64,000 nucleotides of DNA from a plasmid, in assembly GCF_055900595.2 (NCBI RefSeq), contig NZ_JBVWEU010000003.1; one strand, given 5' to 3'. Under the pieces are notes generated by a model that saw only the letters and a list, made by a program, of their open reading frames with translations, did no database searches and was not told the origin of the DNA. This document shows, piece by piece, positions 1 to 18,961 of the stretch (positions are counted from its first letter, which is position 1; every line of letters starts with the position of its first letter). The position numbers and the translations under genes were made by a program.

Positions 1-75
1 GCTTTCGCTCCTCTGAAGGGGCACATGAACGTCCCGTCGCCGGTATCCGGTTTATCTCACATCTTTCAGTCAGGA
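1..75 (+). promoter_or_regulatory. 3' end of an ssi/Frpo-like single-strand promoter element, truncated by the window edge, immediately upstream of ssb
   Basis: Window starts with GCTTTCGCTCCTC..., resembling the GGAGCTTCGCTCCTCCGGG hairpin at the 3' end of the two full repeat copies (6350-6380, 9208-9230); lies just upstream of the ssb RBS. Confidence 0.35.
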
Positions 76-82
76 GGTTCTT

Positions 83-610
83 ATGAGTGCACGTGGTATC
101 AACAAGGTCATCCTCGTCGGGCGTCTGGGCAATGATCCGGAAGTCCGTTACATCCCCAACGGGGGTGCAGTGGCAAACCTGCAGGTGGCTACGTCAGAAA
201 GCTGGCGCGACAAACAGACGGGGGAGATGCGGGAGCAGACGGAATGGCACCGCGTGGTGCTGTTCGGCAAGCTCGCGGAAGTGGCAGGTGAATATCTGCG
301 CAAGGGCGCGCAGGTCTACATCGAGGGGCAACTCCGTACCCGTAGCTGGGAAGATAACGGTATCACCCGTTACGTCACTGAAATTCTTGTTAAGACCACG
401 GGCACCATGCAGATGCTGGGGAGTGCACCACAGCAGAACGCTCAGGCGCAACCGAAGCCTCAGCAGAATGGGCAGCCACAGAGTGCTGACGCGACGAAAA
501 AAGGTGGCGCGAAAACGAAAGGCCGTGGACGTAAGGCCGCGCAGCCCGAGTCTCAGCCGCAACCGCCGGAGGGGGAGGATTACGGGTTTTCAGACGATAT
601 CCCGTTCTGA
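83..610 (+). CDS. ssb: Plasmid single-stranded DNA-binding protein
   Basis: 175 aa; OB-fold N-terminus, Gln/Pro-rich linker and the acidic C-terminal tail ending DDIPF typical of SSB; AGGAGG RBS upstream. Confidence 0.95.
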
Positions 611-628
611 CTGGCCTGACTGTGATAA

Positions 629-901
<273 letters not shown>

Positions 902-964
902 GAGAGGTGCCGGACGGGAACGCGTCCGGCAGACATACAACCATCCCGGTCAAAGGAGAAATAT

Positions 965-2923
965 ATGTCAGTTACAGAGTCTAAGACAAAAACGGAGCGT
1001 AAATCCAGCCGTAAACCTGCAAAAACGCAGGAAACAGTCCTGTCTGCCCTGCTGGCGCAGACGGAGGAAGTGAGCGTGCCGCTGGCCTCACTGATTAAGT
1101 CACCGCTGAATGTGCGCACGGTGCCGTATTCTGCGGAGTCCGTCAGTGAACTGGCTGATTCCATTAAGGGGGTCGGCCTGCTGCAGAATCTGGTTGTTCA
1201 TGCCCTGCCAGGTGACCGCCACGGTGTCGCCGCAGGTGGTCGCCGACTGGCTGCACTCAATATGCTGGCAGAGCGTGGCATCATTCCGGCGGACTGGCCT
1301 GTCCGCGTGAAGGTTATTCCGCAGGAACTGGCGACGGCGGCATCAATGACTGAAAACGGTCATCGTCGGGATATGCACCCTGCTGAACAGATTGCCGGAT
1401 TCCGCGCAATGGCGCAGGAAGGCAAAACACCTGCACAAATCGGTGATTTGCTGGGCTATTCACCCCGCCATGTCCAGCGAATGCTGAAACTGGCTGACCT
1501 TGCGCCTGTCATCCTCGATGCGCTGGCAGAAGACCTCATCACCACCGAGCACTGTCAGGCGCTGGCGCTGGAGAACGACACCGCTCGTCAGGTGCAGGTG
1601 TTTGAAGCCGCCTGTCAGTCAGGATGGGGCGGTAAACCGGAAGTGCAGACCATTCGTCGTCTGGTGACCGAAAGTGAAGTGGCGGTGGCGGGGAACAGTA
1701 AATTCCGCTTCGTGGGGGCTGATGCCTTCTCGCCAGATGAACTGCGCACCGATTTGTTCAGCGATGACGGGGACGGTTATGTCGACCGCGTGGCGCTCGA
1801 TGCCGCCCTGCTGGAAAAACTCCAGGCTGTCGCTGAACACCTTCGGGAAGCCGAAGGCTGGGAATGGTGCGCCGGACGTATGGAGCCTGTCGGTTTCTGC
1901 CGTGAGGATGCCGGAACATACCGCAGTCTGCCGGAGCCGGAAGCTGTGCTGACGGAGGCGGAAGAAGAACGCCTGAACGAACTGATGGCACGTTACGACG
2001 CGCTGGAAAATCAGTGTGAGGAATCCGACCTGCTGGAAGCAGAAATGAAGCTGATGCGCTGCATGGCGAAGGTCAGGGCGTGGACGCCGGAGATGCGTGC
2101 CGGAAGTGGCGTGGTGGTGTCCTGGCGTTATGGAAACGTATGTGTCCAGCGTGGTGTGCAGTTGCGCAGTGAGGATGACGTGGCTGACGACGCTGGCCGC
2201 ACGGAACAGGTGCAGGAGAAAGCCTCCGTGGAGGGAATCAGTCTGCCGCTGCTGACGAAAATGTCTTCCGAACGCACGCTGGCAGTCCAGGCGGCACTGA
2301 TGCAGCAGCCGGACAAATCCCTGGCACTGCTGGCATGGACGCTCTGCCTGAATGTGTTTGGCAGCGGAGCGTACAGTAAACCAGCACAAATCAGCCTGGA
2401 ATGTAAACATTATTCGCTGACCAGCGATGCGCCATCGGGGAAGGAAGGTGCCGCGTTCATGGCGATGATGGCAGAAAAAGCCCGTCTTGCGGCCCTGTTA
2501 CCGGGGGGATGGTCACGGGACATGACGACGTTCCTTTCACTCAGTCAGGAGGTGCTGTTATCCCTGCTCAGTTTCTGCACCGCGTGCAGCATCCACGGCG
2601 TTCAGACCCGCGAGTGTGGTCACACGCCACGCAGCCCGCTGGACACGCTGGAGAGCGCCATCGGTTTTCACATGCGCGACTGGTGGCAGCCGACAAAAGC
2701 AAACTTCTTCGGACACCTGAAAAAGCCGCAGATTATCGCAGCCCTGAATGAGGCAGGACTGTCCGGTGCCGCACGGGACGCGGAGAAGATGAAGAAAGGC
2801 GATGCGGCTGAACATGCAGAGTTCCATATGAAAGACAACCGCTGGGTGCCTGGCTGGATGTGTGCACCACGTCCACAGACGGATACCACTGAACGCACTG
2901 ATAACCTGGCTGATGCCGCCTGA
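965..2923 (+). CDS. ParB-like nuclease domain protein of the leading region
   Basis: 652 aa; N-terminal ParB/Sulfiredoxin-like segment (LQNLVVHALPGD...GGRRLAAL) plus HTH-like segment (PAQIGDLLGYSPRHVQRMLKLA); conserved position upstream of psiB. Confidence 0.8.
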   Translation: MSVTESKTKTERKSSRKPAKTQETVLSALLAQTEEVSVPLASLIKSPLNVRTVPYSAESVSELADSIKGVGLLQNLVVHALPGDRHGVAAGGRRLAALNMLAERGIIPADWPVRVKVIPQELATAASMTENGHRRDMHPAEQIAGFRAMAQEGKTPAQIGDLLGYSPRHVQRMLKLADLAPVILDALAEDLITTEHCQALALENDTARQVQVFEAACQSGWGGKPEVQTIRRLVTESEVAVAGNSKFRFVGADAFSPDELRTDLFSDDGDGYVDRVALDAALLEKLQAVAEHLREAEGWEWCAGRMEPVGFCREDAGTYRSLPEPEAVLTEAEEERLNELMARYDALENQCEESDLLEAEMKLMRCMAKVRAWTPEMRAGSGVVVSWRYGNVCVQRGVQLRSEDDVADDAGRTEQVQEKASVEGISLPLLTKMSSERTLAVQAALMQQPDKSLALLAWTLCLNVFGSGAYSKPAQISLECKHYSLTSDAPSGKEGAAFMAMMAEKARLAALLPGGWSRDMTTFLSLSQEVLLSLLSFCTACSIHGVQTRECGHTPRSPLDTLESAIGFHMRDWWQPTKANFFGHLKKPQIIAALNEAGLSGAARDAEKMKKGDAAEHAEFHMKDNRWVPGWMCAPRPQTDTTERTDNLADAA

Positions 2924-2974
2924 TGAACAACCACACCGCCCCGCCGGAGACGGGGCGGCAGCAAGGGAGATACC

Positions 2975-3412
2975 GTGATGAAAACTGAACTGACCCTGAA
3001 TGTATTACAGACCATGAGTGCACAGGAATATGAAGATATCCGTGCTGCGGGAAGCGATATGCGCCGTAATCTCACTCACGAGGTGATGCGTGAAGTGGAC
3101 GCACCGGCTAACTGGATGATGAATGGCGAGTATGGCAGTGAGTTCGGGGGCTTTTTCCCCGTCCAGGTTCGTTTCACGCCAGCCCACGAACGTTTCCACC
3201 TGGTATTATGTTCGCCGGGAGAAGTCTCTCAGCTCTGGATGCTGGTTCTGGTGAATGGTGGTGGACAGCCTTTCGCCGTCGTTCAGGTGCAACATATCTT
3301 CACGCCTGTCGCGATCAGTCACACGCTGGCGCTCGCCGCGACACTTGATGCGCAGGGATACAGTGTTAACGACATCATTCATATTTTGATGGCAGAAGGA
3401 GGTCAGGCATGA
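2975..3412 (+). CDS. psiB: Plasmid SOS inhibition protein B
   Basis: 145 aa; near-identical over its length to PsiB as recalled ([13 protein letters not shown]...[13 protein letters not shown]). Confidence 0.95.
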
Positions 3413-4128
3413 GCGCACGTTCACGGGCACTGATCCCCCTCAGCGCAGAACAACAGGCCGCCATGCAGGCTGTGGCTGTCACCGAACAACGTCGTCGTCA
3501 GGGACGCACACTTTCAGCATGGCCTTATGCCAGCGCTTTCTTTCGCTGCCTGAATGGCAGTCGCCGGATTTCGCTGACCGATCTCCGCTTTTTTGCTCCT
3601 GCGCTGACGAAGGAGGAATTTCATGGCAACCGTCTCCTGTGGCTGGCTGCCGTGGATAAACTGATTGAAAGTTTTGGTGAAGTCTGTGTTCTTCCCCTGC
3701 CATCCGATGCGGGGCACCGTCTGTTCCCGTCCGTTCCTTTTCGTGAAGGTGAGCGTCGTCGTCAGAAAACCACGCTGACAGAGCAGAAATACAGCCGCCA
3801 GCGGGAACGTGAGGCAGAACGACGGGAACTGGAATACCAGACATGTTTTGCTCAGGCGCAGATTGACCTTGCGTTTCATACTCCCTCCACGGTCGGAAGC
3901 TGGTTGTCCCGCTGGTCTGGTGTTGTTGAGGAGCATGATCTGGAAACGATTTTCTGGGGGTGGTGCGGGCGTTTTCCGTCACTGTCATCATTTGACCGTT
4001 TTTTCTGGCAGGAGGAACCACTCTGGCGGCTGATTTTTGAAGCCGGTGAGGCCGGTCGTGGTGCACCGGTACAGGTACGTGCACTTGAGCAGTGGATGAT
4101 CCCGAACAAGCTGGAGAACGTAATATGA
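3409..4128 (+). CDS. psiA: Plasmid SOS inhibition protein A
   Basis: 239 aa; start overlaps the psiB stop (ATGA); matches PsiA N-terminus (MSARS.ALIPLS.EQQAA...[19 protein letters not shown]). Confidence 0.95.
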
Positions 4129-4721
4129 TGAAATCAGACGAAAAATACCAGGTTCCCGCGTGGATGCGACCTCTGTTGCCGTTGCTCTGCAACACCGGGG
4201 AGAACGATCCGGAAGAACTGCTGAATGATACAGAAACCACTGCCAGTGCGAATGTTGTCCGTTATGTACTGATAGTTGCAGTGCGGTCGCAGGTTGATCT
4301 GCTGCAGCTTCTGTACAGGAAAGGGCTGTTGCGCACAGAGATACCAGGTGGCTTTTCACCGGAAGAAGCGCAGGAACTCCTGGATAATCTGGTGCGCAGC
4401 CATATCAGCAGGGCGCTGTCGGGTGAGCGAATGGCAGCCCGTGACAGGAATGCCGATCTGGCCTGGATTCGACAGCAACTGGTCGATGCCGCCTGGTTTG
4501 TCCGTGCCACACTGGAAGCGCATGGGATGAGCGTCGGAAATGAGAGTCCCCCTGCTCAGCCGGAGACAATGCCGGACATACAGACACGGGAACTGGTGAT
4601 GTTGATCAAGCGACTGGCATCATCGCTGAAAGCGGTGAAACCGGACAGTTGTGTGGTGCGTGAAGCGCAGGACTGGCTGCGCGACAGAAAACTTGTGAGC
4701 ATCACGGATGTTCTTCGGTGA
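4125..4721 (+). CDS. Hypothetical leading-region protein
   Basis: ATG overlapping the psiA stop (TAATATGATG); about 199 aa, acidic, no recognisable motif. Confidence 0.5.
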   Translation: MMKSDEKYQVPAWMRPLLPLLCNTGENDPEELLNDTETTASANVVRYVLIVAVRSQVDLLQLLYRKGLLRTEIPGGFSPEEAQELLDNLVRSHISRALSGERMAARDRNADLAWIRQQLVDAAWFVRATLEAHGMSVGNESPPAQPETMPDIQTRELVMLIKRLASSLKAVKPDSCVVREAQDWLRDRKLVSITDVLR

Positions 4722-5185
4722 ACCAGTGGAGGTATGCTTGAGGGGCAGGGACATGCCGGTCATGATCGTTTCGTTCCAGGGGTGGTCTGGAGATCATGCG
4801 GCGTGTCCTCTGCACTCGCCGGAATAAGGACGTCGCCGCCGGCTCCGCTTTTACCCGGCCATGCGGGGCATGGCCTTGTGGGTTTTCAGTTATGTGGCCG
4901 CCGTGTCGTGTGCGGGCTGTGCCGTGCCTCCATCGTAGCCGGGCTTCTGCGGGCGGGATGCAAGGTAAGATGAACCGCTGCGGTCACCCGGTCCCTCCTT
5001 CCCGTCTGCCGTGATTTTCCGGTCGTTCACCCGCTCAGATTTCGCGGTCTCACCCTCCAACTCCCGTCAGCCGTGCGCGTCGGGCTGCGGCTTTCCTTGC
5101 GCCCTTGCATCCCTGCAGGCCCGGCAAAGATGGAGGCACGGCACCGCCCGGTGTCGCAGAACATGTGACTATGGAGGATTCGGGA

Positions 5186-5686
5186 ATGTCTGTTGTTGCA
5201 CCTGCTGTATACGTTGGAACCTGGCACAAATATAACTGCGGAAGCATCGCCGGCCGCTGGTTTGACCTGACCACGTTTGATGATGAACGCGATTTTTTCG
5301 CCGCCTGCCGTGCCCTTCACCAGGATGAAACCGATCCGGAACTGATGTTTCAGGATTATGAGGGTTTCCCGGGGAATATGGCCTCTGAATGTCATATCAA
5401 CTGGGCCTGGGTTGAAGGCTTCCGCCGGGCACGGGATGAAGGCTGCGAAGAGGCTTATCGTCTCTGGGTGGATGATACCGGTGAGACGGATTTTGACAGC
5501 TTCCGCGATGCCTGGTGGGGCGAGGCTGACAGTGAGGAGGCTTTTGCGGTTGAGTTCGTCAGTGATACCGGCCTGCTGGCTGACGTGCCGGAGACGGTGG
5601 CGCTCTATTTTGACTATGAGGCGTATGCGCGGGATTTATTCCTGGACTCCTTCACCTTTATTGACGGTCATGTGTTCCGTCGGTGA
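5186..5686 (+). CDS. ardA: Antirestriction protein ArdA (type I R-M inhibitor, DNA mimic)
   Basis: 166 aa from the in-frame ATG at 5186, preceded by GGAGG; highly acidic; matches ColIb-P9 ArdA as recalled (MSVVAPAVYVGTWHKYNCGSIAGRWFDL...IDGHVFRR). Confidence 0.9.
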   Translation: MSVVAPAVYVGTWHKYNCGSIAGRWFDLTTFDDERDFFAACRALHQDETDPELMFQDYEGFPGNMASECHINWAWVEGFRRARDEGCEEAYRLWVDDTGETDFDSFRDAWWGEADSEEAFAVEFVSDTGLLADVPETVALYFDYEAYARDLFLDSFTFIDGHVFRR

Positions 5687-6024
5687 TTTACTCCCCCGCT
5701 CCGGCGGGGGTATGGCCTGCCGGGCCGCCGGAAAACCCTGGCAGGCTTACGCCTGCCTGAAATGCAGGAGGGCCGCGCCTGCGGCGCTGCCCTTCCTGCC
5801 CGTCATGGTGTGAGGCATTTTTCTGTTATGTCGTTTCTGTTGTTCTGATTTCCGGAGGCGGGGACACCCTTCGGCTCCCGGCTGCCTGGCGGCATCCGGT
5901 CGTCAGGCCCGACTCCGACAGGCAGCTGCTGGCGCACCCGCCAGTCTCCGCCGAACCCGCTGGCGCGGTTTCGGGCTGCCGCTACGGTCCGATGTCTGAA
6001 AAACCAGGCCTGCAGCGACCGTTC

Positions 6025-6400
6025 CGGTCGCGCCGCCCCTGTCGCGCCGGAAACGGCGCTCCCTGCACACCTGACGGTGTGTAAGGCCACTGCGCCTGAT
6101 GGCGCAGTTGTCTGCCCTTCCGCCGCCACCCCTGCGGCCTGTTTCCCGCTGTGGACTTTCCGGGGGCTGAAGCGGCCACAACACGTTTCAGCCGTCCAGG
6201 GGAGAGATGTACCAGCCACAAAACTTTTTGCCGCAGGCGTCAAAAACTTTTGCGTCTGCCCCCGGACAACTGCCCCGTGCCGTGGCAGTCGCTGCCCCAT
6301 CGGAAAGGTCCACTGCGGGGAGAAACCCCGAAGAAGTGGACGGCAGAAGGGGCTTTCGCCCCTCCGGGGAATAACCGGTCGGCCCGGCGACCTGATTCAG
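6025..6400 (+). promoter_or_regulatory. ssi/Frpo-like single-strand promoter element (repeat copy B)
   Basis: About 370-bp GC-rich non-coding element, near-identical in blocks to 8895-9255; several short hairpins (ACACC-TGAC-GGTGT, CTGCGCC-TGAT-GGCGCAG, GGGGC-TTTC-GCCCC); directly upstream of a + strand gene block. Confidence 0.6.
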
Positions 6401-6417
6401 CAGAAGGAGACGTTTTC

Positions 6418-6852
6418 ATGACAGTCAGCAGCACGATTTCCGTTTTTTGCCGAGACGGGGTGTTCCGTACCGTTTACTGCCACCTGCACGGTGAGCCGAC
6501 CTGGAACGGTCGCATCCTGCATACCCACTATGCCACCGGTCAGCTGGCCGAAGCCCTGGTTGAACACGGAGATATCCGTTGCCTCGGTCCCCGTTGCGAC
6601 AAACCCGCCGGGCATACGCTTCAGAACCCGGTGGACGGTGTGACGGCTTATTACGGACGTGACAGTGGTTTCCGGATGGACAGTGAAGCGCGTGAGTACC
6701 GCTCTTTCAGGGAGGCTATTGCCACTGAAAGCACAGAAGAGGTGCGCTTCCATTATGTGTTCATCGACGGCTACTGGAAGGTGATGTACCGCACGCCGGA
6801 AGGCTGGAAGATGAAAGCGCTCGCGCTGGCACTGCGTCGCTGTCCGGAATGA
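6418..6852 (+). CDS. Hypothetical leading-region protein (first gene after ssi copy B)
   Basis: 144 aa from ATG 6418 with GGAGA RBS; Cys/His-rich N-terminus (CRDG...CHLHGE...C..PRC); no family recognised. Confidence 0.55.
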   Translation: MTVSSTISVFCRDGVFRTVYCHLHGEPTWNGRILHTHYATGQLAEALVEHGDIRCLGPRCDKPAGHTLQNPVDGVTAYYGRDSGFRMDSEAREYRSFREAIATESTEEVRFHYVFIDGYWKVMYRTPEGWKMKALALALRRCPE

Positions 6853-6944
6853 AAAAAAGCAGGGCGATAAACCCTGCCTTTCTCCGCCGGCGCTTCCCCG
6901 TACGGAAGTCCGGCATCTCATTCACTAACTATGGAGATTATGCT

Positions 6945-7211
6945 ATGAGGCCATCAATTATCTTCGCAACCGCCGAGTATGTAAAGCGTCTGCGTGAAGA
7001 GTGCCGGCGGGAGAACAAACCCCTGCACCGCCATACCCGCTTCAGACGCCAGGAACTGGCACCGGATGAGATTAACCCGGACGTCCTGGCGATGGGCGGT
7101 CATATCGCCAGACGCTGCAGTGAGCGGAAGCGGGTGCGTATCCCCGCCATGAAAGTCAGCGAATGGGGCCACCTGCTCCGCGCGCTTGAAATTGAGCGGG
7201 TCTGCCACTGA
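6945..7211 (+). CDS. Hypothetical small basic protein
   Basis: 88 aa from in-frame ATG 6945 with GGAG 8 nt upstream; Arg-rich. Confidence 0.4.
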   Translation: MRPSIIFATAEYVKRLREECRRENKPLHRHTRFRRQELAPDEINPDVLAMGGHIARRCSERKRVRIPAMKVSEWGHLLRALEIERVCH

Positions 7212-7275
7212 TTAACCCTTGCCGTCTGCCTGTGCAGGCGGCAGGATACGTTCAGACATCTCACCAGGAGGAACC

Positions 7276-8193
7276 GTGAGTAAGAAGAAAACCACCACGA
7301 CGCCCACGCCGCATGATGCCGCGTTCCGGTCGTTCCTGGCGAACCCCGACGTCGCCAGAGATTTTCTGGAACTGCATCTTCCGGCGGAGTACCGGCAGTT
7401 GTGCGACCTGTCCACGCTGAAGCTGGAACCCGCCACCTTTGTTGAGCCGGACCTGCATCAGTACGCCAGCGATATCCTCTGGAGTGTGAAAACCACCGGG
7501 GGTGAAGACGGCTATATTTATACGCTCATCGAGCACCAGAGCACCGAAAATCTGTACATGCCTTTCCGCATGTTACGTTACAGTGTGGCGGCGATGCAGA
7601 GACATCTGGAGCAGCACAAAACATTGCCACTGGTGATTCCGGTGCTGTTCTATCATGGTGAGCGCAGCCCGTACCCGTACAGCATGAACTGGCTGGACTG
7701 TTTTGAGGATCCGGCACTTGCGGCTAAAATATACACAAAGCCGTTTCCGCTGGTTGATATCACTGTCGTTGATGACAATGAAATCATGAACCATCGCCGG
7801 ATGGCCGCACTGACGCTGCTGATGAAGCATATCCGTCAGCGGGATATGCTGATGTGTCTGGACAACCTGGTCAGGGCACTGCAGGACATCCAGGATGAAG
7901 AGCAGATTACAGTTCTTTTCAACTATCTGCTTAATGGCAGCGAACATGTAACGGTTAAATTTTTGCAGACGCTGGCGCAGCGACTGCCGCAGCACGAGGA
8001 CAGCATTATGACACTGGCAGAACGTCTTAAGCAGGAAGGAATACAGCAGGGAATACAGCAGGGAATACAGAAAGGCCGCATGGAGGAGAAGCTGGATATT
8101 GCGCGTCAGCTTCAGAAAACGGGAATGTCATTTGCACAAATCTGTCAGATCACCGGACTTTCTGAAGCCGAACTGAAAAAAATCGCCCACTGA
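7276..8193 (+). CDS. Rpn-family recombination-promoting nuclease (YhgA-like, PD-(D/E)XK)
   Basis: GTG start at 7276 after AGGAGG; N-terminus MSKKKTTTTPTPHDAAFRSFL and core ...YIYTLIEHQS... typical of Rpn proteins; C-terminal GIQQGIQQGIQKG repeat and helical tail. Confidence 0.85.
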   Translation: MSKKKTTTTPTPHDAAFRSFLANPDVARDFLELHLPAEYRQLCDLSTLKLEPATFVEPDLHQYASDILWSVKTTGGEDGYIYTLIEHQSTENLYMPFRMLRYSVAAMQRHLEQHKTLPLVIPVLFYHGERSPYPYSMNWLDCFEDPALAAKIYTKPFPLVDITVVDDNEIMNHRRMAALTLLMKHIRQRDMLMCLDNLVRALQDIQDEEQITVLFNYLLNGSEHVTVKFLQTLAQRLPQHEDSIMTLAERLKQEGIQQGIQQGIQKGRMEEKLDIARQLQKTGMSFAQICQITGLSEAELKKIAH

Positions 8194-8205
8194 GTAAACA
8201 TCACA

Positions 8206-8231
8206 GCCCGGCAAAATGCCGGGCTTTTTTG
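8206..8231 (+). terminator. Rho-independent terminator after the rpn gene
   Basis: GCCCGGC-AAAAT-GCCGGGC stem-loop followed by TTTTTT. Confidence 0.7.
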
Positions 8232-8254
8232 TCAGCAGGAGCAGAGCAAACAGC

Positions 8255-8413
8255 ATGACGATTGCAGAACGTCTTATTCAAAAAGGCGCTCTTGAAGTGG
8301 CGCGGGAAATAGCCTGCCGGCTTCGGGATATGGGCTGGACGCCGGAACGGATTCAGGAGGCAACCGGACTTTCCGGTGAAGAACTGAAAAAACTGTTTCC
8401 TGATGAGCTGTAG
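8255..8413 (+). CDS. Free-standing Rpn C-terminal-domain-like small protein (RpnS-like)
   Basis: 52 aa (MTIAERLIQKGALEVAREIACRLRDMGWTPERIQEATGLSGEELKKLF) resembling the C-terminal tail of the upstream Rpn protein (AERLKQEG...IARQLQKTGMSFAQICQITGLSEAELKKI). Confidence 0.4.
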   Translation: MTIAERLIQKGALEVAREIACRLRDMGWTPERIQEATGLSGEELKKLFPDEL

Positions 8414-8443
8414 CCTGGCATTCTGCCAGGCTGTGAATCACGC

Positions 8444-8695
8444 TCACACATCCTCTGCCGTTTCCCCCAGTTCATTTTCCAGTCGCCTGATGATATCTGC
8501 CTTACGCATCCCCTGCATGTGAGGCAGCAGGTCACGGACTGAAAGAGCCTGGGTGGTCCTCCAGACGGTGACGTCCACCTGTTCCGCATTTTCCCAGGCG
8601 TGCCATGTTCTCTGCGTCACGCCAAATTCTCTGGCCGCTTTTTCGCGTGACCAGAGCATGCTTTTTCGCCAGATTCGCAGTTCCCAGCCGGTCAT
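8444..8695 (-). CDS. Small HTH DNA-binding protein (Cro/XRE-like), opposite strand to the leading-region genes
   Basis: 83 aa; LWSREKAAREFGVTQRTWHAWE helix-turn-helix-like segment; ATG at 8695-8693. Confidence 0.55.
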   Translation of the reverse strand: MTGWELRIWRKSMLWSREKAAREFGVTQRTWHAWENAEQVDVTVWRTTQALSVRDLLPHMQGMRKADIIRRLENELGETAEDV

Positions 8696-8710
8696 AAAAC
8701 ACCTTTGAAA

Positions 8711-8796
8711 AAGTGAAAAAACTTCACTTTATTTTATCATCATAATCATCAAATCAGCGCGATAAATAAGTGTGAAAAAGTGAAGAAATTTCACTT
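8711..8796. promoter_or_regulatory. Two identical palindromic operator-like sites AAGTGAA-N5-TTCACTT (8711-8729 and 8778-8796)
   Basis: Perfect 7-bp inverted half-sites with 5-bp spacers, twice, in an AT-rich stretch just upstream of the - strand HTH gene start. Confidence 0.55.
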
Positions 8797-8894
8797 TTTT
8801 TTGATTGTGGGTGTCGTGCTGTTTTCTCTGTTTTCACCTGTGCGGGAGTGGTGCGCCAGTGACCACAGCATGCCGTTGTTGTGCCGTCGGTTTT

Positions 8895-9255
8895 CTCCGG
8901 TCGCGCCGGATGCGGCGCTCCCTGCACACCTGACGGTGTGTAAGGCCACTGCGCCTGATGGCGCAGCTGTCTCTGCCTGTCTGCCGCCGCACTGCGGCCC
9001 GTTCTCCGCAGACGGACTTTCCGGGGGTACATACACGACCACATCCCGTTTCAGTCGTCCAGGGGAGAGATGTACCAGCCACAAAACTTTTTGCCGCAGG
9101 CGTCAAAAACTTTTGCGTCTGCCCCCGGACAACTGCCCCGTGACGTGGTGAGCGTCCCCCGTCGGAAAGGTCCACTGCGGGGAAATCCCCGAAGACCCGG
9201 ACGGCAGAAGGAGCTTCGCTCCTCCGGGAAATGACCTGGCTGACCCGGCAGTCGT
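8895..9255 (+). promoter_or_regulatory. ssi/Frpo-like single-strand promoter element (repeat copy C, oriT-proximal)
   Basis: Shares long near-identical blocks with 6025-6400 (for example GCGCTCCCTGCACACCTGACGGTGTGTAAGGCCACTGCGCCTGATGGCGCAG and CAGCCACAAAACTTTTTGCCGCAGGCGTCAAAAACTTTTGCGTCTGCCCCCGGACAACTGCCCCGTG). Confidence 0.6.
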
Positions 9256-9275
9256 GACGATGAGGAGACAATGTG

Positions 9276-10124
9276 ATGAATCAGACTTTACCCACTGCTG
9301 ACCTGAATACTGCCGGCACGACAGATGTTATTCCGTCTGTGGCTATCGACCGCATCATCGCGCAGCGTAACGAAGGTATTACACTGTTCATGCAGGCGAT
9401 GGAATGCCTGGCGACAGCGCGCAGGATTCTGCTCGATGCGTCAGGTGATATTTTTCTTTACGGGTTTGAAGACTGCGTGACTGATTCCGTTCGTCGCATG
9501 GATAAACCGGAAGAAGCGAAAAGGAATATCACCCGTCTTGCCGACCGGAAAATCTGGGACCGCCTGATGACAGATACGGGCATGTACACCTTCATGAGTT
9601 CATGCCAGCGTGATGAGTGGAACAGCCAGCTGATGAGCGACACCTGTCCTGAAATCACCCTGGACAATGTACTGGCAACATTCCGCCATCTGAATGCCAG
9701 CAAAATGCAGACATTTGAACAGGGACTGATTGATGTCTACCGGAAATTGTCATGGGATTACAGAACCAATAATCCCTGCCGTCTGGGCAAGAAAATCATT
9801 ATTGAAAACCTGCTGTACCGCTGGAGTAACGGGCGTGTGACGCTGGACTGCAGCGGACGGGAGGCACTGGATGACCTGGTACGTCCGTTTTATCTGCTGG
9901 AGGGGCGCAACGTTCCTGACTTCCGGAGCAGCATCGGGGCGCAGTATTGTGAATTTCTCGGGAACGGCGACAATATCGGTGAGTTGTTTGAAGGGGAATA
10001 TTTTACGGTGCGTGGCTACCAGAAAGGAACCGTACACATTGTCTTTAAGCGTTCTGACCTTGTTGAAAAACTGAATGATATTATTGCACGGCATTATCCT
10101 GGTGCATTGCCGCCACGAGTCTGA
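9276..10124 (+). CDS. Hypothetical protein, first gene downstream of the oriT-proximal ssi element
   Basis: 282 aa from ATG 9276 with GAGGAG RBS; no motif recognised with certainty; followed by a terminator. Confidence 0.6.
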   Translation: MNQTLPTADLNTAGTTDVIPSVAIDRIIAQRNEGITLFMQAMECLATARRILLDASGDIFLYGFEDCVTDSVRRMDKPEEAKRNITRLADRKIWDRLMTDTGMYTFMSSCQRDEWNSQLMSDTCPEITLDNVLATFRHLNASKMQTFEQGLIDVYRKLSWDYRTNNPCRLGKKIIIENLLYRWSNGRVTLDCSGREALDDLVRPFYLLEGRNVPDFRSSIGAQYCEFLGNGDNIGELFEGEYFTVRGYQKGTVHIVFKRSDLVEKLNDIIARHYPGALPPRV

Positions 10125-10132
10125 TTAAACAG

Positions 10133-10170
10133 AAAAGCCCTGGTATTTATGCCGGGGCTTTTTTTTCTGT
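10133..10170 (+). terminator. Probable rho-independent terminator
   Basis: Imperfect GC stem (AGCCCTGG...CCGGGGCT) followed by an 8-T run. Confidence 0.5.
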
Positions 10171-10209
10171 AATCATCATAATCTCAGAACACGATGTGAC
10201 ATTGTCACA

Positions 10210-10545
10210 TCAATTGTTGTTCATATCGATGCCATCTTTCCTGCCTGAATCTGTCTTTTTAGGTGCTGTTTTAGAGGAAGAACGGCGGGATGGTTTTTTC
10301 GATTCTGCTTCCCGAATAATGTCACGAAGTGCCTTCTCTCCTACTTCATACCCTGCATTTTTGAGCGTGTCACGAACATCTGCAAGTGTATAACCCTTTG
10401 TCCTTACCAGGACAATGATGTCATCACGAATGGCATCAAGAAAATCACGCAATGTTTTCCGTTGAGCGGTGAGGTCCGGCAATTCCGATAAGGCAGATTT
10501 TGCCAGCTGGATGTCATCATCTGAGTAAAATTTTTTAGAAGCCAT
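10210..10545 (-). CDS. Hypothetical small protein adjacent to oriT, divergent from nikA
   Basis: About 111 aa from ATG 10545 with GGAGAG RBS; charged and helical, Lys/Ser-rich basic C-terminal tail. Confidence 0.5.
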   Translation of the reverse strand: MASKKFYSDDDIQLAKSALSELPDLTAQRKTLRDFLDAIRDDIIVLVRTKGYTLADVRDTLKNAGYEVGEKALRDIIREAESKKPSRRSSSKTAPKKTDSGRKDGIDMNNN

Positions 10546-10599
10546 TGGCACTGTCTCTCCGTTTCATGTTGAAGCCTGATTTTATCATCAAAAACTGAC

Positions 10600-10777
10600 T
10601 CCTGGCAGGGCTGCGCCCTGCCTCTGCCGTCTGCATAAGACTATGATGCACAAAAATAACAGGCTATAATTGCATGAAAAACGGGACAGGATGTGGGAAT
10701 GTCGGACCGCGCACGCGCACTCAGACATTCCCCACCTGGTCAGGGCTTTGCCCCGACACCCCGGTAAGGAGCAGACC
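10600..10777 (-). other. oriT: Origin of transfer, R64-like; predicted nick in the - strand between + coordinates 10687 and 10686
   Basis: The - strand reads ...GGGGTGTCGGGGCAAAGCCCTGACCAGGTGGGGAATGTCTGAGTGCGCGTGCGCGGTCCGACATTCCCACATCCTGTCCCG...; inverted repeat GGGAATGTC/GACATTCCC (10695-10703 and 10724-10732) beside an ATCCTG motif; immediately upstream of nikA. Confidence 0.7.
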
Positions 10778-11110
10778 ATGAGTGAGAAGAAAACCCGAAC
10801 GGGCAGTGAGAACAGGAAGAGAATTGTAAAATTCACGGCGAGATTCACGGAGGATGAGGCTGAAATCGTAAGAGAAAAAGCGGAGTCAAGTGGACAGACG
10901 GTTTCAACATTTATACGAAGCTCTTCACTGGATAAGGTGGTTAACTGCCGTACTGACGACCGTATGATTGATGAGATTATGCGTCTTGGCCGCCTTCAGA
11001 AGCATCTGTTTGTGGAGGGAAAACGCACTGGTGATAAGGAGTATGCAGAGGTTCTTGTTGCCATTACTGAATATGTCAATGCTCTGCGAAGAGACTTAAT
11101 GGGACGCTGA
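10778..11110 (+). CDS. nikA: Relaxosome accessory protein NikA (ribbon-helix-helix)
   Basis: 110 aa from ATG 10778 with AAGGAG RBS; small basic RHH-like protein directly upstream of the relaxase. Confidence 0.85.
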   Translation: MSEKKTRTGSENRKRIVKFTARFTEDEAEIVREKAESSGQTVSTFIRSSSLDKVVNCRTDDRMIDEIMRLGRLQKHLFVEGKRTGDKEYAEVLVAITEYVNALRRDLMGR

Positions 11111-11121
11111 GATAACTGCTG

Positions 11122-13842
11122 ATGAATGCCATTATTCCGCACAAAAGACGTGACGGCAGGTCTTCCTTTGAAGACCTGATTGCGTACACGTCTGTGCGGG
11201 ATGATGTGCAGGAAAATGAGCTCACAGAAGACAGCGAAATCAAGAGTGATGTCCCTCACCGCAACCGTTTCAGACGGCTTGTTGATTATGCAACACGCCT
11301 GCGTAACGAAAAATTTGTCTCCCTGATTGATGTGATGAAAGACGGCAGTCAGTGGGTAAATTTCTATGGCGTAACCTGTTTCCATAACTGCAATTCACTG
11401 GAAACAGCTGCTGAAGAGATGCAGTACAAGGCGGACAAAGCTGTTTTTTCCCGTAATGATACAGACCCCGTTTTCCACTACATTCTTTCCTGGCCTGCGC
11501 ATGAAAGCCCGCGTCCTGAGCAGCTTTTTGACTGTGTGCGTCACACACTGAAATCTCTTGAACTCTCAAAACATCAGTACGTGGCTGCCGTTCATACGGA
11601 CACGGATAATCTGCATGTGCATGTTGCCGTGAATCGTGTACATCCTGAAACTGGTTATATTAACTGGCTTTCCTGGAGCCAGGAAAAACTCAGTCGTGCA
11701 TGCCGTGAACTTGAACTTAAGCACGGATTTGCGCCGGATAATGGCTGCTTTGTGCATGCACCCGGCAACCGTATTGTGCGCAAAACAGCGCTGGTACGTG
11801 AGCGCCGTAATGCCTGGCGACGCGGGAAAAAGCAGACGTTCAGGGAATATATTGCGCAGATGTCGATTGCCGGGCTGCGTGAAGAGCCCGCACAGGACTG
11901 GTTATCTTTGCATAAACGGCTGGCCAGTGATGGTCTGTATATCACGATGCAGGAAGGGGAACTGGTGGTGAAGGATGGCTGGGACAGAGCGCGGGAAGGT
12001 GTTGCACTCAGTTCGTTCGGACCGTCATGGACAGCTGAAAAACTGGGGCGGAAACTGGGGGAATATCAGCCTGTACCGACAGATATTTTCAGTCAGGTGG
12101 GGACACCCGGTCGTTATGATCCGGAAGCCATAAACGTGGATATCCGGCCGGAAAAAGTGGCAGAAACGGAGAGTCTGAAACAGTACGCCTGTCGTCACTT
12201 TGCTGAACGCTTACCGGAAATGGCGCGAAATGGTGAACTGAAAAGTTGCCTGGCTGTACACCGTACTCTGGCAGAGGCGGGATTATGGATGGGGATTCAG
12301 CACGGGCATCTGGTACTGCATGATGGATTTGATAAACAACAGACACCAGTACGTGCAGACAGTGTGTGGCCGTTAATGACGCTGGATTATATGCAGGATC
12401 TGGATGGTGGATGGCACTCTGTACCGAAGGATATTTTTACTCAGGTTATACCCGAAGAACGATTCCGGGGACACAGTATTGGCACTCAGGCTGTCAGCGA
12501 TTACGAATGGTATCGCATGAGGATGGGCACTGGTCCACAGGGTGCCATAAAGCGTGAACTGTTTTCCGATAAGGAAAGTCTGTGGGGATACGCTCTTATT
12601 CAGTGCAGGAGCCAGATTGAAGAGATGATAGCTGGCGGGGATTTCAGCTGGCAGGCATGTCATGAGATGTTTGCGCGTAAAGGGCTTATGCTGCAGAAAC
12701 AGCATCATGGTCTCGTGATTGTGGATGCGTTTAATCATGAACTGACACCGGTGAAGGCCAGCAGTATCCACCCGGATTTGACGTTATCCCGGGCCGAGCC
12801 TCAGGCCGGGCCATTTGAAATTGCGGCTGCAGATATTTTCGAACGGGTGAAGCCTGAATGTCGCTACAATCCGGAACTTGCTGCCAGTGATGAAGTGGAG
12901 CCCGGCTTCCGGCGCGATCCTGAGCTGCGTCGTGAGCGCCGTGAAGCCCGTGCAGCTGCGCGGGAAGATTTGCGTGCGCGTTATCTTGCATGGAAGGAAC
13001 ACTGGCGTAAACCCGATTTACGTTACGGCGAACGGTTGCGGGAAATTCATGCTGCCTGCCGTCGTCGCAAGGCTCATATCCGCGTGCAGTTCCGGGATCC
13101 ACAATTGCGTAAACTGCATTACCATATTGCAGAAGTGCAACGTATGCAGGCGCTGATCAGACTGAAGGAAAATGTCAGGGAAGAGCGACTGGCGCTGATG
13201 GCGGAGGGTAAGTGGTATCCGTTGTCCTACCGGCAGTGGGTGGAACAACAGGCGGCGCAAGGCGACAGAGCTGCAGTGTCACAGCTCCGAGGCTGGGATT
13301 ATCGCGATCGTCGCTCGCGTAATAAGGATAAAAGACGCACAACTAATGCTGATCGTTGTGTCGTTCTCTGCGAACCCGGAGGAACGCCACTTTTTAATAA
13401 TGTTGCAAAACTTGAAGCTCGTCTTCAGAAAAATGGAAGTGTTCATTTCAGGGATACGCGGACAGGAAAAAATGTCTGTACGGATTACGGAGATCGGGTT
13501 GTGTTCTACCATCACACGGACCGAAATGAACTGGCAGAGAAGCTTGATTTAATTGCGCCAGTTCTGTTCAGCCGCAACGGAAAGCTTGGTTTTGAGCCGG
13601 AAGGTTCATACCAGCAGTTTAATGATGTGTTTGCAGAAATGGTGGCCTGGCACAATGCAGCGGGAATAACCGGAAACGGACACTTCACCATTACTCGTCC
13701 GGACGTGGATTTGCACCGTCAACGCAGTGAGCAGTATTACCGGGAATATATCAGACAGCAGACCCGTTTATCGGAGAGCCATGATGATAATTATACGTTA
13801 CGGCAGGAGAAAACATGGGAGCCACCATCACCTGGAATGTAA
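11122..13842 (+). CDS. nikB: MOBP-family relaxase NikB
   Basis: 906 aa; His-rich relaxase motif HTDTDNLHVHVAVNRVHPETG; size and position match R64 NikB. Confidence 0.9.
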   Translation: MNAIIPHKRRDGRSSFEDLIAYTSVRDDVQENELTEDSEIKSDVPHRNRFRRLVDYATRLRNEKFVSLIDVMKDGSQWVNFYGVTCFHNCNSLETAAEEMQYKADKAVFSRNDTDPVFHYILSWPAHESPRPEQLFDCVRHTLKSLELSKHQYVAAVHTDTDNLHVHVAVNRVHPETGYINWLSWSQEKLSRACRELELKHGFAPDNGCFVHAPGNRIVRKTALVRERRNAWRRGKKQTFREYIAQMSIAGLREEPAQDWLSLHKRLASDGLYITMQEGELVVKDGWDRAREGVALSSFGPSWTAEKLGRKLGEYQPVPTDIFSQVGTPGRYDPEAINVDIRPEKVAETESLKQYACRHFAERLPEMARNGELKSCLAVHRTLAEAGLWMGIQHGHLVLHDGFDKQQTPVRADSVWPLMTLDYMQDLDGGWHSVPKDIFTQVIPEERFRGHSIGTQAVSDYEWYRMRMGTGPQGAIKRELFSDKESLWGYALIQCRSQIEEMIAGGDFSWQACHEMFARKGLMLQKQHHGLVIVDAFNHELTPVKASSIHPDLTLSRAEPQAGPFEIAAADIFERVKPECRYNPELAASDEVEPGFRRDPELRRERREARAAAREDLRARYLAWKEHWRKPDLRYGERLREIHAACRRRKAHIRVQFRDPQLRKLHYHIAEVQRMQALIRLKENVREERLALMAEGKWYPLSYRQWVEQQAAQGDRAAVSQLRGWDYRDRRSRNKDKRRTTNADRCVVLCEPGGTPLFNNVAKLEARLQKNGSVHFRDTRTGKNVCTDYGDRVVFYHHTDRNELAEKLDLIAPVLFSRNGKLGFEPEGSYQQFNDVFAEMVAWHNAAGITGNGHFTITRPDVDLHRQRSEQYYREYIRQQTRLSESHDDNYTLRQEKTWEPPSPGM

Positions 13843-14061
13843 GCCCGGATAAGTGATGGTGCAAAGATTCAGCCCAAAAACGGCAGGAACCTTCGTCAAT
13901 AAGGGCGGGAGTAGTCACTGAATTGAGTTTATACCCGGTTAACTCTGAATTAAGGGCCGTGTCTGCGGCCCTTATCCAGTGCGCCGTAAACCCCGGACTT
14001 AGTGAACAGGGTTTTACAGTCTGATTGACAGATATGGTCACCAGAAAATATTTGTATTCCT

Positions 14062-16362
14062 TCAGTATTTTTCGTCAGTTGTTGGTTGTGCTCCACATGA
14101 TTTCTGGGGATGATCATTATTTATTGTCTGCGATTTATTATTTTCAGCGACCGGTAACAGTATCTCCAGGGGGAGCAGGGTATTCAGAATCGCCTTCACT
14201 GAAGGTATATCTTCAGGACCGGAGTGTTCCTCTTCCGGACGATTCAGTGTGATATAACATACCCGGCGTTCTTCCCTGGTTGTGTTATTGATAGTGTGCA
14301 CAGCCTTTTTCCACAGTTCGTTTGCCCGGGATTCGATATCTGTATCATATTGCGGAAGCAGATCCAGTGATGTCTGCGCTGTTGCCAACCGGCGCTGGAA
14401 TGTATCAATGATACGGTAAGGCTCTGTACGGTTTTTACGACGTTTACGGGATGGTTTTGCTGTCAGTACACCAATAATGCTGCTGACATGCTCCGGTGTG
14501 GGAAAACGGCGCTGCACTGTCCTGGGGACAAGACGGCGGAGACGTTCCAGTCGGGGGGCTTCAACAGAGATATAACGGTTGATGACCACTGGATCACTGT
14601 CGCAACTTTTTTCGCTGTCCGGAATATACACAGAGGCTGACGGCACCACATCCCCCTGGAAAACGGTAAAGAATTCACCGGCATTCAGTTTGATTAAATC
14701 CTGCACGTTGATTTTGCTTTCCATCTGGATTGTGATCTGGTTACCGTCCACCCAGGACTCTCCCATCACACCATCGTGGCGCTGCAGGCTGCCCATTCTG
14801 GCGCGGGCCTCTTCACCGGCGGCATTTTTCACCGTCCTTGCTGTTTTGTCGTCACTGACAATGCGTCCGGCGAATTTGGTGCCGGCGTTCTGCATCAGCG
14901 TGGCGGTGTTGGTGGCAGAAGTCTGCCCTTCGATTCGCTCCTGATCCTGCGCCGTCATTATCAGGGAGAACTCCAGTGAACGTACCTGGGTGGCCTCCAC
15001 TGCAATGCGGTCCGTGTAGTAGGCACCGACTTCGTCAAGGATACAGATATAGGGGAAGCGGCCTTTGTATTTTTTGACTTCCAGGGTCTGTGCATCTGTG
15101 CCTTCCAGGCGGTAGCCCAGGTCACGGGCGAGGATCATGCTCTGCTGGGTGATGAACATACGACCGAGTGCCGACGTGGTATGGGCTGATGTGTCCAGTG
15201 CGGGGATCATCACAATCAGAATTCGGTCGCTGTGGATACTGTCGCGAATATCGATGTCGCCGGCATCTGCCGCAAAGACGTCCCCGAAGGTTTCGGCAAA
15301 GGTTGTGAACGTTTCCGAGAACTGACCGGAGAGATAAGCATGCTGTTTACGGGGCTCCTCAGTCCAGGCTGACGGCGTTCTCACCAGTGACATATCGAAT
15401 CCCGGGACATCCTGCAGGTAGTTTCGCAGTGGTGCGATAGCTTCTTCCGGCCACTGGTCATCAAGGCCACGGCAATAGAGTTTTGCCATCCCTTCCAGCG
15501 TCATATGTTCCCGTAACATATGCAGGGACATGGTTTTACCTTCCCGGACGCACCAGAATTTTGTGCCAAAGACCAGGGCCTTGTTCATGGCTATCGCCCG
15601 TGACTGCCATTCACCGCCCTGAACGTTCTGGGGCAGCATGGACTGCATGGTTTCGGCGGTGAAGGCTTCGGTGCTGAATGCGAACGGGTTCCAGGTGTTT
15701 GACTGTGGGCGGGATTTATCGCCACTCTGAATGACTTCACTGCGGGATTTTCCGCCGTTCATGAAGTTGATGACCTCGATATCATCCTCCCGGCCAAAAC
15801 GTCGGGAGAGATACCAGATTGTCCTCGTGGTATCGTTCTGTGCCTTTCCGTCAACAAAGGTAAAGCCTCTTCCCCAGCAGAGCGGGTTGAGCAGCCAGGC
15901 AAAGGTGGTTTCTGTTTTACCGCCACCGGTGGTGGAAAAAAATATGATATGCCGGGTGAGGTCATCCATGCTCAGCCAGAGCTCACGACCGATATCGTTG
16001 ATACGGCGGTAACCGACATAAAAAATCCCCCGTGCGGGGGATGTTTCATCTGCTTCATACTGAAACAGGGTAGGCCAGAAGCTGAAGAGGCTTCGCCTGA
16101 CCTTTCTGTCCTGGGAGGGGTCATCAAGGCTGAGCGTCATGGGCATACGCAGGGGGCATCGCCAGCGTTGCAGCGTGAATATCACGGAGGTGACCAGGGT
16201 GAACAGCAGACAGACAGGAAGGGCCAGTGGCCATATCAGGGCCGTAATGATACTGCCAGCCAGACACAGACCAATGATGTTCAGGTTGTGCAGTGCATTC
16301 CACAGCGGGTTTCCCCAGGCCGTGCGGTGTATGAGGTCAGGATTAACGTGATGCTGGCTCAT
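14062..16362 (-). CDS. trbC: Type IV coupling protein TrbC (DotL/IcmO-like ATPase)
   Basis: 766 aa; N-terminal TM helices; Walker A FFSTTGGGKTE; position next to nikB. Confidence 0.85.
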   Translation of the reverse strand: MSQHHVNPDLIHRTAWGNPLWNALHNLNIIGLCLAGSIITALIWPLALPVCLLFTLVTSVIFTLQRWRCPLRMPMTLSLDDPSQDRKVRRSLFSFWPTLFQYEADETSPARGIFYVGYRRINDIGRELWLSMDDLTRHIIFFSTTGGGKTETTFAWLLNPLCWGRGFTFVDGKAQNDTTRTIWYLSRRFGREDDIEVINFMNGGKSRSEVIQSGDKSRPQSNTWNPFAFSTEAFTAETMQSMLPQNVQGGEWQSRAIAMNKALVFGTKFWCVREGKTMSLHMLREHMTLEGMAKLYCRGLDDQWPEEAIAPLRNYLQDVPGFDMSLVRTPSAWTEEPRKQHAYLSGQFSETFTTFAETFGDVFAADAGDIDIRDSIHSDRILIVMIPALDTSAHTTSALGRMFITQQSMILARDLGYRLEGTDAQTLEVKKYKGRFPYICILDEVGAYYTDRIAVEATQVRSLEFSLIMTAQDQERIEGQTSATNTATLMQNAGTKFAGRIVSDDKTARTVKNAAGEEARARMGSLQRHDGVMGESWVDGNQITIQMESKINVQDLIKLNAGEFFTVFQGDVVPSASVYIPDSEKSCDSDPVVINRYISVEAPRLERLRRLVPRTVQRRFPTPEHVSSIIGVLTAKPSRKRRKNRTEPYRIIDTFQRRLATAQTSLDLLPQYDTDIESRANELWKKAVHTINNTTREERRVCYITLNRPEEEHSGPEDIPSVKAILNTLLPLEILLPVAENNKSQTINNDHPQKSCGAQPTTDEKY

Positions 16363-18825: not shown

Positions 18826-18961
18826 GGGGATTCCTCCATAGATGAATGGATAAATTTCGGGATTAAGTCGGGTGGCATGAATGCGAATCAGCGCCGGTAA
18901 TAACCGGACAGGAATGAGTTCAACAGGACATTTTCACAGAGAAGAGCGTGGGAGACAGGTA

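Follow-up and report, generated by a model that had tools for sequence, protein, structure and literature searches.

A hairpin upstream of ardA in a plasmid leading region is very probably a class 2 single-stranded DNA promoter

Class 1 single-stranded DNA (ssDNA) promoters, exemplified by Frpo1 and Frpo2 (ssiD) of F and by ssi1-3 of ColIb-P9, are hairpins of the transferred strand in the leading region, which rebuild a −35 and a −10 element, point toward oriT, and are active only while single-stranded (Masai & Arai 1997; Bates et al. 1999; Nasim et al. 2004; Couturier et al. 2023). They drive ssb/psiB-type operons. A second class was described on pESBL. In that report (Wen et al., Nucleic Acids Res 2025, PMC12672017), ardA and klcA each head one of six operons whose expression had risen strongly by 15 min after transfer, and the large hairpins upstream of both genes were named class 2 ssDNA promoters. 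The authors state that their start sites, determined by 5′ RACE, fit the ssDNA-promoter prediction, and that induction was prolonged in a uvrD-deleted recipient. The F copy was found independently and named Frpo3 (bioRxiv 10.1101/2025.04.03.647016). At this copy, also called ssp2, complementary-strand synthesis stalls at the stem edge until UvrD clears it, and the stall prolongs expression from single-stranded promoters (bioRxiv 10.64898/2026.01.09.698686). A homologous sequence appeared as the candidate "Frpo' 4" in Supplementary Table 2 of Samuel et al. 2024 (Nature). The ardA-upstream element is thus already in print as a class 2 ssDNA promoter, Frpo3 or ssp2, and zygotic induction, a 5′ RACE start site and a roadblock have been demonstrated by others for close homologues of the copy analysed here. 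As near-identical copies were accounted for in this way in 2025-2026, the present copy is a further member of the class and not a discovery.

The DNA under study (the window) is a stretch of 64,000 nucleotides from a plasmid, and covers the leading region. On the plus strand lie, in this order, psiB (2975-3412), psiA (3409-4128), an ORF of 209 amino acids (orf209, 4092-4721) for which a Pfam search returned zero matches, a gap, ardA (5186-5686, 166 amino acids; PF07275, E = 5e-30, residues 8-161), two repeats of Frpo/ssi type, the oriT gap, nikA, and nikB. The region is 100% identical to the IncK2/Z plasmid pEGY2 (NZ_CP023144). In the oriT gap upstream of nikA, the minus strand carries the motif CATCCTG|T (10686-10693), preceded by the inverted repeat GGAATGTC...GACATTCC. 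The nick consensus of MOBP relaxases is YATCCTG|Y. Since the nick motif is on the minus strand, this is the transferred strand, and it is the template of psiB, psiA, orf209, ardA, nikA, and nikB. The element upstream of ardA sits about 5.5 kb into the leading region, counted from the nick. Location in the leading region and a downstream gene templated by the transferred strand are two of the features by which class 2 promoters are recognized, and both were found here.

The gap between the stop codon of the 209-aa ORF and the ATG of ardA at 5186 comprises 464 bp (4722-5185). At 63.8% GC it exceeds the window average of 53.7% and ranks at the 99th percentile among segments of 464 nt. The first-pass annotation, made from the letters alone, had described it as a long, GC-rich, non-coding leader, and the description held: a check for coding homology found no Pfam match in any of its four internal ORFs, and the frames of ORFs in the gap are disrupted in close homologues by indels of 4 nt and 1 nt. 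That annotation had also seen no extended identity to the two other repeats, which are the class 1 copies of the window at 6039-6366 and 8900-9226. Blastn, ssi queries, and the class 2 family profile agreed with it. When the ColIb-P9 ssi1-3 and F ssiD sequences of Supplementary Table 2 in Samuel et al. 2024 were used as queries, ssi1-3 matched the two class 1 copies at 82-99% (99% at 8900-9226, 89% at 6039-6366), and ssiD matched the class 1 copies at 74% over a partial stretch. In 4722-5186 all of these queries gave only chance matches (E > 0.2). A profile of the class 2 family found no match at 6039-6366 or 8900-9226. Class 1 hairpins differ also in having an A/T-rich tip (AAAAGTTTTTG...CAAAAAGTTTTG), which is missing from the window element, whose GC content is higher. 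A blastn search of the region against the window at word size 7 and a direct-repeat search recovered only the region itself and its own arms, and no second copy; the sister copy upstream of klcA sits outside the window.

The relationship to class 2 is direct. The gap is 89.3% identical over 450 bp to the ardA-upstream region of pESBL (E = 2e-172), with the same order of psiA, ORF, element, and ardA and with 89% identity extending over the whole intergenic region, and it is 89.2% identical over 360 bp to the klcA-upstream region of F (ssp2/Frpo3). The class 2 family profile matched the minus strand at 4909-5154 (E = 7e-47). At least 5000 plasmid records match the gap; the matches listed in a search for distant relatives were all copies of 88% identity or more, and among the matches listed about 970 are at least 95% identical to it. 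In I-complex plasmids the gap precedes ardA. Its inner 353 bp (4826-5178, minus strand; query positions 105-457 in the klcA contexts), delimited by megablast and blastn searches against plasmids, are common to ardA-upstream and klcA-upstream copies and precede a 141-aa "antirestriction protein" (klcA/ardB, PF03230) in IncF and IncI plasmids. We conclude that 4826-5185 is very probably (probability about 0.88) a class 2 ssDNA promoter of the ssp2/Frpo3 type that drives ardA. The assignment rests on sequence homology, on a covarying structure with a strand bias, on the geometry of the promoter boxes, and on genomic context; by analogy with the tested homologues, we infer promoter activity, the exact start site, and a roadblock for the window copy. 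The idea of a divergent single-strand promoter, raised in the first-pass annotation, was therefore well founded, in that the element is a hairpin promoter of a sequence family other than Frpo/ssi. The restriction of this promoter to ardA was not: the 353-bp module also precedes klcA/ardB in IncF and IncI plasmids, and its relatives precede N6/N4 methyltransferase genes.

Repeat searches and folding resolved the gap into one large imperfect hairpin with a branched interior and a small terminator-like hairpin. Where many short inverted repeats had been noted, strong structure was confirmed on both strands, and its source turned out to be one long imperfect hairpin instead of many short ones. Its arms are an inverted repeat of 4913-4965 against 5103-5150, with a 32-nt core that is 91% complementary. 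Folded as DNA, the minus strand of the gap reached −112.3 kcal/mol, where shuffled sequences averaged −88.6 (z = −5.1; none of 100 shuffles equalled it), and the plus strand gave z = −4.1. The promoter hairpin by itself (246 nt) folded at −72.7 kcal/mol, compared with −72.4 for the pESBL copy and −80.2 for F ssp2.

The first structure in the gap is an imperfect hairpin at 4744-4815, in the 3′ flank of the upstream ORF, which was seen in the repeat search and the folds and is confined to the ardA-context copies (window and pESBL). Copies in the klcA context lack it and have a canonical GGCGGGG...CCCCGCC-TTTTT terminator in its place. The 353-bp module that follows contains the small hairpin, the promoter hairpin, and most of the 5′ untranslated region. 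The small hairpin, GGCCATGC-GGG-GCATGGCC and then TTGTGGGTTTT (4857-4886, plus strand), has an 8-bp stem at 4857-4875 and a T-rich tail, and a terminator scan reported a terminator-like site with tail at 4862-4880. It looks like an intrinsic terminator of the psiB-psiA-orf209 transcript, and its stem is retained through compensatory changes in the Frpo' 4 homologue (GGCCCG/CGGGCC). On the transferred strand, the promoter hairpin begins with its 5′ arm (5103-5150), the template strand of the promoter. It continues through an interior of sub-hairpins around a three-way junction (4966-5102; sub-hairpins at about 4968-4998, 5003-5073, and 5075-5102), and ends with its 3′ arm (4913-4965), which would serve as the non-template strand once the promoter is rebuilt. 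About 55 nt of this interior is missing from the short relatives, among them the probable class 3 element.

Putative promoter boxes lie on the minus-strand 3′ arm, the arm and orientation expected for transcription toward ardA, with the −35 element TTGCAT at 4963-4958, a spacer of 20 nt (4957-4938), and the −10 element TACGAT at 4937-4932. The template arm faces the −35 at 5105-5110 and the −10 at 5126-5131, with mismatches at 5126/4937 and 5128/4935, so that T-12 and C-10 are mismatched and A-11 is left as an isolated pair between them. Against the 20 nt of spacer on the non-template arm, the template arm has 15 nt. Neither is the textbook 17 bp, the −35 agrees at three of six positions, and a search of this copy for another −35 placement with a 17-nt spacer found none. 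The pESBL and F copies have in common with the window copy the hairpin, its invariant blocks GCCGTG/CACGGC and GCCGGGC/GCCCGGC, the TTGCAT, a TAnnnT −10 with internal mismatches, and an equal distance to the ribosome-binding site. The window copy differs from both in a spacer that is re-modelled on both arms (variant A; 20/15 nt against 15/19 nt), and from pESBL in its −10, which is TACGAT with −12 and −10 mismatched where pESBL has TAAGAT with −11 to −9 unpaired. Frpo' 4, from the insect-gut metagenome OFEI01000013.1, is homologous over the hairpin and the small upstream hairpin at 72% identity and has the same boxes, arranged as TTGCAT-N15-TAAGAT. Unlike the window element, it precedes a KlcA-like gene and not ardA, and in its source paper it is a bioinformatic candidate only. 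We recovered an element identical to it in Candidatus Erwinia dacicola.

Box geometry predicts transcription to start at A5138, give or take 2 nt, which is 7 nt after the −10 and within the family-invariant CACGGC. The predicted 5′ untranslated region of ardA (5139-5185) would give a leader of 47-48 nt, and contains the Shine-Dalgarno sequence GGAGGA (5173-5178), 7 nt before the ATG at 5186. This ATG is the RefSeq start of ArdA in the identical plasmid pEGY2, and the Pfam ArdA domain begins at residue 8 of the 166-aa protein. The suspicion that the N-terminal extension of the ardA ORF from 5105 is not translated is thereby upheld. The TTG at 5105 falls within the template arm, ahead of the predicted start near 5138, and the extension is therefore an artefact of the ORF call; 5105-5185 is very unlikely to be translated and lies outside the ardA gene.

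For a comparison across relatives, we scanned genome contigs with a degenerate pattern of the non-template arm. The scan gave 91 loci, about one third of which were chance matches in unrelated high-GC genomes and were removed by requiring a complementary partner arm. The true elements, about 60, belong to Enterobacterales genomes, among them Enterobacter, Klebsiella, Salmonella, Yersinia, Cedecea, Buttiauxella, Pantoea, Erwinia, Rahnella, Kosakonia, Siccibacter, and Izhakiella. From these and the known copies, 32 non-redundant sequences were aligned in transferred-strand orientation. RNAalifold on the 32 relatives recovered the main stem. Stem cells were paired in 96.6% of cases, against 34-45% with slid partners, and compensatory changes were seen at 10 pairs in 77 cells, counts that are inflated by kinship among the aligned sequences; none of 500 shuffles attained the observed covariation score. 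A large, stable stem-loop on the transferred strand, kept by selection, is a further mark of class 2, and is what this alignment contains. The transferred-strand fold was more stable than its complement in all 32 relatives, by 8.4 kcal/mol on average.

Within this stem, TTG of the −35 is retained in 30 of the 32 relatives. At the −10, position −12 is paired in 30, mismatches occur at −11 in 29, at −10 in 29, and at −9 in 25, and −8 and −7 are mostly paired. Since 29 of the aligned sequences came through a search pattern that imposed TAnnnT, its conservation in them is not independent evidence, and is independent only in an alignment of nine sequences. The non-template spacer is 15 nt in 28 relatives, including the tested pESBL and F copies, and the template arm has about four extra bases, or about 19 nt, by hand counts in the copies that were checked. 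Across the family the start codon follows 29-44 nt after the hairpin, and each gene is preceded by a Shine-Dalgarno sequence. The downstream genes encode ArdA, KlcA/ArdB-like proteins (PF03230), or N6/N4 methyltransferases, and some relatives front orphan methyltransferase genes of the latter kind. Since the gene behind the element is one of these three, the family is a promoter module for anti-restriction genes generally, as distinct from the class 1 promoters and their ssb/psiB-type operons.

On this basis we propose the following course of events. The minus strand would enter the recipient 5′-first, from about 10687 toward lower coordinates, and ardA would therefore arrive first and the element after it. 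Single-stranded 5150-4913 would then fold on itself to form a stem of about 44 bp, with the branched interior as its cap. This stem would mimic a duplex promoter, its 3′ arm serving as the non-template strand with TTGCAT as −35 and TACGAT as −10, and the mismatches beside A-11 would keep the −10 partly melted. Host σ70 RNA polymerase would bind, start near A5138, and run out of the stem at its base, reading the transferred strand past GGAGGA and into ardA. With ardA transcribed from the single strand, ArdA would be made before restriction-sensitive duplex DNA exists. Complementary-strand synthesis would afterwards iron out the hairpin, and expression should shut off because TTGCAT-N15-AAAGAT, as the duplex reads, makes a poor promoter. 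If the hairpin behaves like F ssp2, as is probable, it also halts the synthesis of the complementary strand that comes in from the psiA side, until UvrD opens it. With such a stall, ardA and the two class 1 promoters on its oriT side would stay single-stranded for longer.

The stall raises the question of whether the main role is DNA processing, as a priming site for the complementary strand, a roadblock, or both, with promoter activity secondary. In vitro, DNA synthesis is primed by Frpo transcripts, and in vivo the early conversion events seen at class 1 sites disappear with rifampicin. In F, ssp2, which is 89% identical to the window element, stalls the 3′ end at the stem edge and shifts conversion of downstream loci from about 94-108 s to about 155-162 s, and ssp3 put in place of ssp2 fails to restore transfer into an EcoKI recipient (bioRxiv 10.64898/2026.01.09.698686). 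The window hairpin equals the pESBL copy in stability (−72.7 against −72.4 kcal/mol). All of this is compatible with promoter function, however, and the published work shows both activities for ssp2; a roadblock alone would hardly account for the conserved bubble at −10, for the TTG, or for the constant spacing to the ribosome-binding site. Processing as the main role is therefore improbable, and from the analogy with ssp2, priming or a roadblock is probably a function that the element has in addition to that of a promoter.

The same region could also be a structured mRNA leader (an attenuator, riboswitch, or thermosensor) on a transcript from farther upstream, controlling translation or termination of ardA. 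The plus strand does fold well (z = −4.1), and read-through from psiB-psiA-orf209 would include the whole hairpin. However, in all 32 relatives the transferred strand folds more stably than the sense strand, and G-T wobbles on the transferred strand, present in 23 of 32 at one pair, become A-C mismatches in RNA. Most of the structure lies upstream of the predicted start, the terminator-like hairpin at 4857-4886 intervenes between the upstream gene and the big stem, and the same module fronts unrelated downstream genes. An Rfam scan of positions 1-20000 of the window at E ≤ 1 found nothing in the gap, with unrelated matches elsewhere. The start of the pESBL homologue, too, was mapped and reported as fitting the ssDNA-promoter prediction (PMC12672017). 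A structured regulatory leader, offered as the alternative in the first-pass annotation, is accordingly very improbable. An ordinary duplex promoter next to a terminator of the upstream operon, with the inverted repeat as an incidental recombination scar or degenerate mobile repeat, is hardly credible: a terminator-like hairpin is present, and plasmids carry the module more than once, with recombination between the copies, but a consensus scan of 4500-5400 found no duplex σ70 promoter, TTGCAT-N15-AAAGAT is weak as a duplex, the stem is upheld by compensatory changes across genera, and in all cases examined the element keeps one orientation relative to oriT and the downstream gene.

For a class 2 ssDNA promoter in this position, the main consequence concerns timing. 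The element explains how ardA can be expressed within minutes of plasmid entry, ahead of restriction of the new duplex, and this early expression is a step governing the spread of resistance plasmids. To the published account, the present analysis adds comparative evidence from about 30 diverse Enterobacterales elements (covariation, strand bias, and the −10 bubble), the recurrence of the element before three kinds of anti-restriction gene, and the finding that class 3 looks like a shortened relative of class 2.

The last point came from the class 2 profile, which also matched pESBL at 3268-3448 (E = 1e-15) and F at 7653-7833 (E = 6e-15), both directly upstream of the DUF1281-...-methylase (M.EcoGIX) operon. 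From their position only, we infer that these matches are the published class 3 element, ssp3. In Wen et al. 2025 (PMC12672017), class 3 is described as unlike all other hairpins, and ssp3 is reported by Fraikin et al. to be without roadblock activity (bioRxiv 10.64898/2026.01.09.698686). The matched elements nevertheless have in common with class 2 the blocks GCCGTGCC, CCGGGC, AAGCCGCAG, GACCGGGTGAGGA, and TTGCAT-N15-TAACGT-...-GCACGGC. They differ in being about 65 nt shorter, without the long middle sub-hairpin, and in being less stable (−50 kcal/mol, against −72 to −80 for class 2). The interior module missing from class 3 is a candidate for the roadblock determinant.

Tentatively, and at somewhat less than even odds for the two proposals together, class 2 and class 3 may form one Enterobacterales-wide family of anti-restriction promoters, and I-complex plasmids may carry two roadblocks. 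If so, the common core of the family would consist of the GCCGTG/CACGGC clamp around the start site, a pre-melted bubble at −11 to −9, the GCCGGGC/GCCCGGC clamp, an asymmetric spacer loop, and the TTG, and the interior of about 55-65 nt that only the long form has would be what makes ssp2 a roadblock. The roadblock upstream of ardA would then separately keep the last 5.5 kb before oriT single-stranded, including ardA and the two class 1 operons.

Lastly, the spacer type of the window copy is not confined to it. The 20/15-nt type is common to the window, the klcA-upstream copy of pEGY2, and many klcA-upstream copies of IncF plasmids, and these klcA-upstream copies are 97-99% identical to the window copy (97-98% over the hairpin). 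The variant is widespread, with about 970 plasmid records at 95% identity or better. In this variant both arms changed together, with the interior conserved at about 95%. Tests of activity were made on copies with the 15-nt spacer (pESBL and F), and activity of the variant is expected by extrapolation from them. As a natural variant (20 against 15 nt on the non-template arm), it may serve as a probe of how RNA polymerase reads a hairpin promoter. Copies within one plasmid are 97-99% identical to each other over the hairpin, against 88% for same-context copies of different plasmids. This pattern of identities points to gene conversion (concerted evolution) between the copies. One plasmid carries a duplication that runs from one copy context to the other.

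A search with the profile built from the class 2 (ssp2 / Frpo3) family, to which the ssDNA promoter hairpin upstream of ardA belongs, matched the minus strand of two plasmids, pESBL (NC_018659, 3268-3448, E = 1e-15) and F (NC_002483, 7653-7833, E = 6e-15). The operon running from DUF1281 to the M.EcoGIX methylase gene lies directly downstream of both matches. They have in common with the class 2 family the blocks GCCGTGCC, CCGGGC, AAGCCGCAG and GACCGGGTGAGGA, as well as TTGCAT-N15-TAACGT-GCACGGC. In all probability the two regions correspond to the 'class 3' (ssp3) promoter already in the literature, whose hairpin Wen et al. (2025, PMC12672017) set apart from every other. By our comparison, this ssp3 candidate resembles a class 2 element in shortened form and appears to be related to that class.

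Class 2 copies were compared within and between plasmids. The ardA-upstream hairpin of the window (4909-5154), which pEGY2 carries unchanged, is 97.2% identical to the klcA-upstream hairpin of pEGY2, and the corresponding pair in pESBL (14040-14286 and 7093-7339) is 99.2% identical, while hairpins in the same gene context share only 88% identity between pEGY2 and pESBL. Judged from these sequence identities, the hairpins that precede ardA and klcA within a single plasmid appear to be in concerted evolution. A rearranged locus was found in pN17S166 (CP082669, 1494-16031), where the block from klcA to psiA-orf occurs in two copies that flank ardA and the class 2 element belonging to it; the record has four matching places. 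The doubling looks like the product of recombination between the klcA-upstream and ardA-upstream class 2 copies.

Just 3' of the ORF upstream of the ardA element, an imperfect 20-nt inverted repeat, GGGACATGCCGGTCATGATC ... GATCATGCGGCGTGTCC, occupies 4744-4815. It is kept in the ardA-upstream copy of pESBL, and in its place the klcA-upstream copies carry a canonical intrinsic terminator.

The -10 mismatch bubble is present in 29 of the 32 non-redundant aligned relatives. The ardA-upstream relative of Erwinia sp. OLFS4 (2342-2593) has 24-nt arm cores that are perfectly complementary, with TACAGT on each arm, and therefore lacks this bubble. Enterobacterial plasmid leading-region sequence was also found in contigs filed under Streptomyces morookaense DSM 40503 (L014/L015) and in Oscillibacter, Oscillospiraceae and Collinsella MAG contigs (L016, L019, L020, L035). 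These contigs, filed as Gram-positive genomes or MAGs, contain a class 2 hairpin together with klcA, ardA or a methylase gene, and in their arm cores they do not differ from copies on E. coli-type plasmids, such as the window's own. Assembly contamination or mis-binning is the probable source of these elements.

Two class 1 ssDNA promoters lie on the minus strand of the window, at 6039-6366 (89% identity to ColIb-P9 'Frpo2', ssi2) and 8900-9226 (99% identity to ColIb-P9 'Frpo1', ssi1), and both resemble F ssiD less than the ColIb-P9 ssi sequences. In the gap upstream of nikA, a MOBP-type nick motif, CATCCTG|T (10686-10693, minus strand), comes after an inverted repeat, GGAATGTC...GACATTCC, and is likely the oriT nick site. 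About 13 perfect tandem copies of the 9-nt unit TTTCGGTGG span 17499-17615, which, if coding, would give a 3-residue repeat in the protein. An Rfam scan placed an AgrB match (RF02891) at 18961-19050 on the minus strand (50.4 bits; gathering score 40). This family comprises antisense RNAs from type I toxin-antitoxin loci of the dinQ type, and a DinQ-like toxin, DqlB, is annotated in the flank of the pESBL transfer region.
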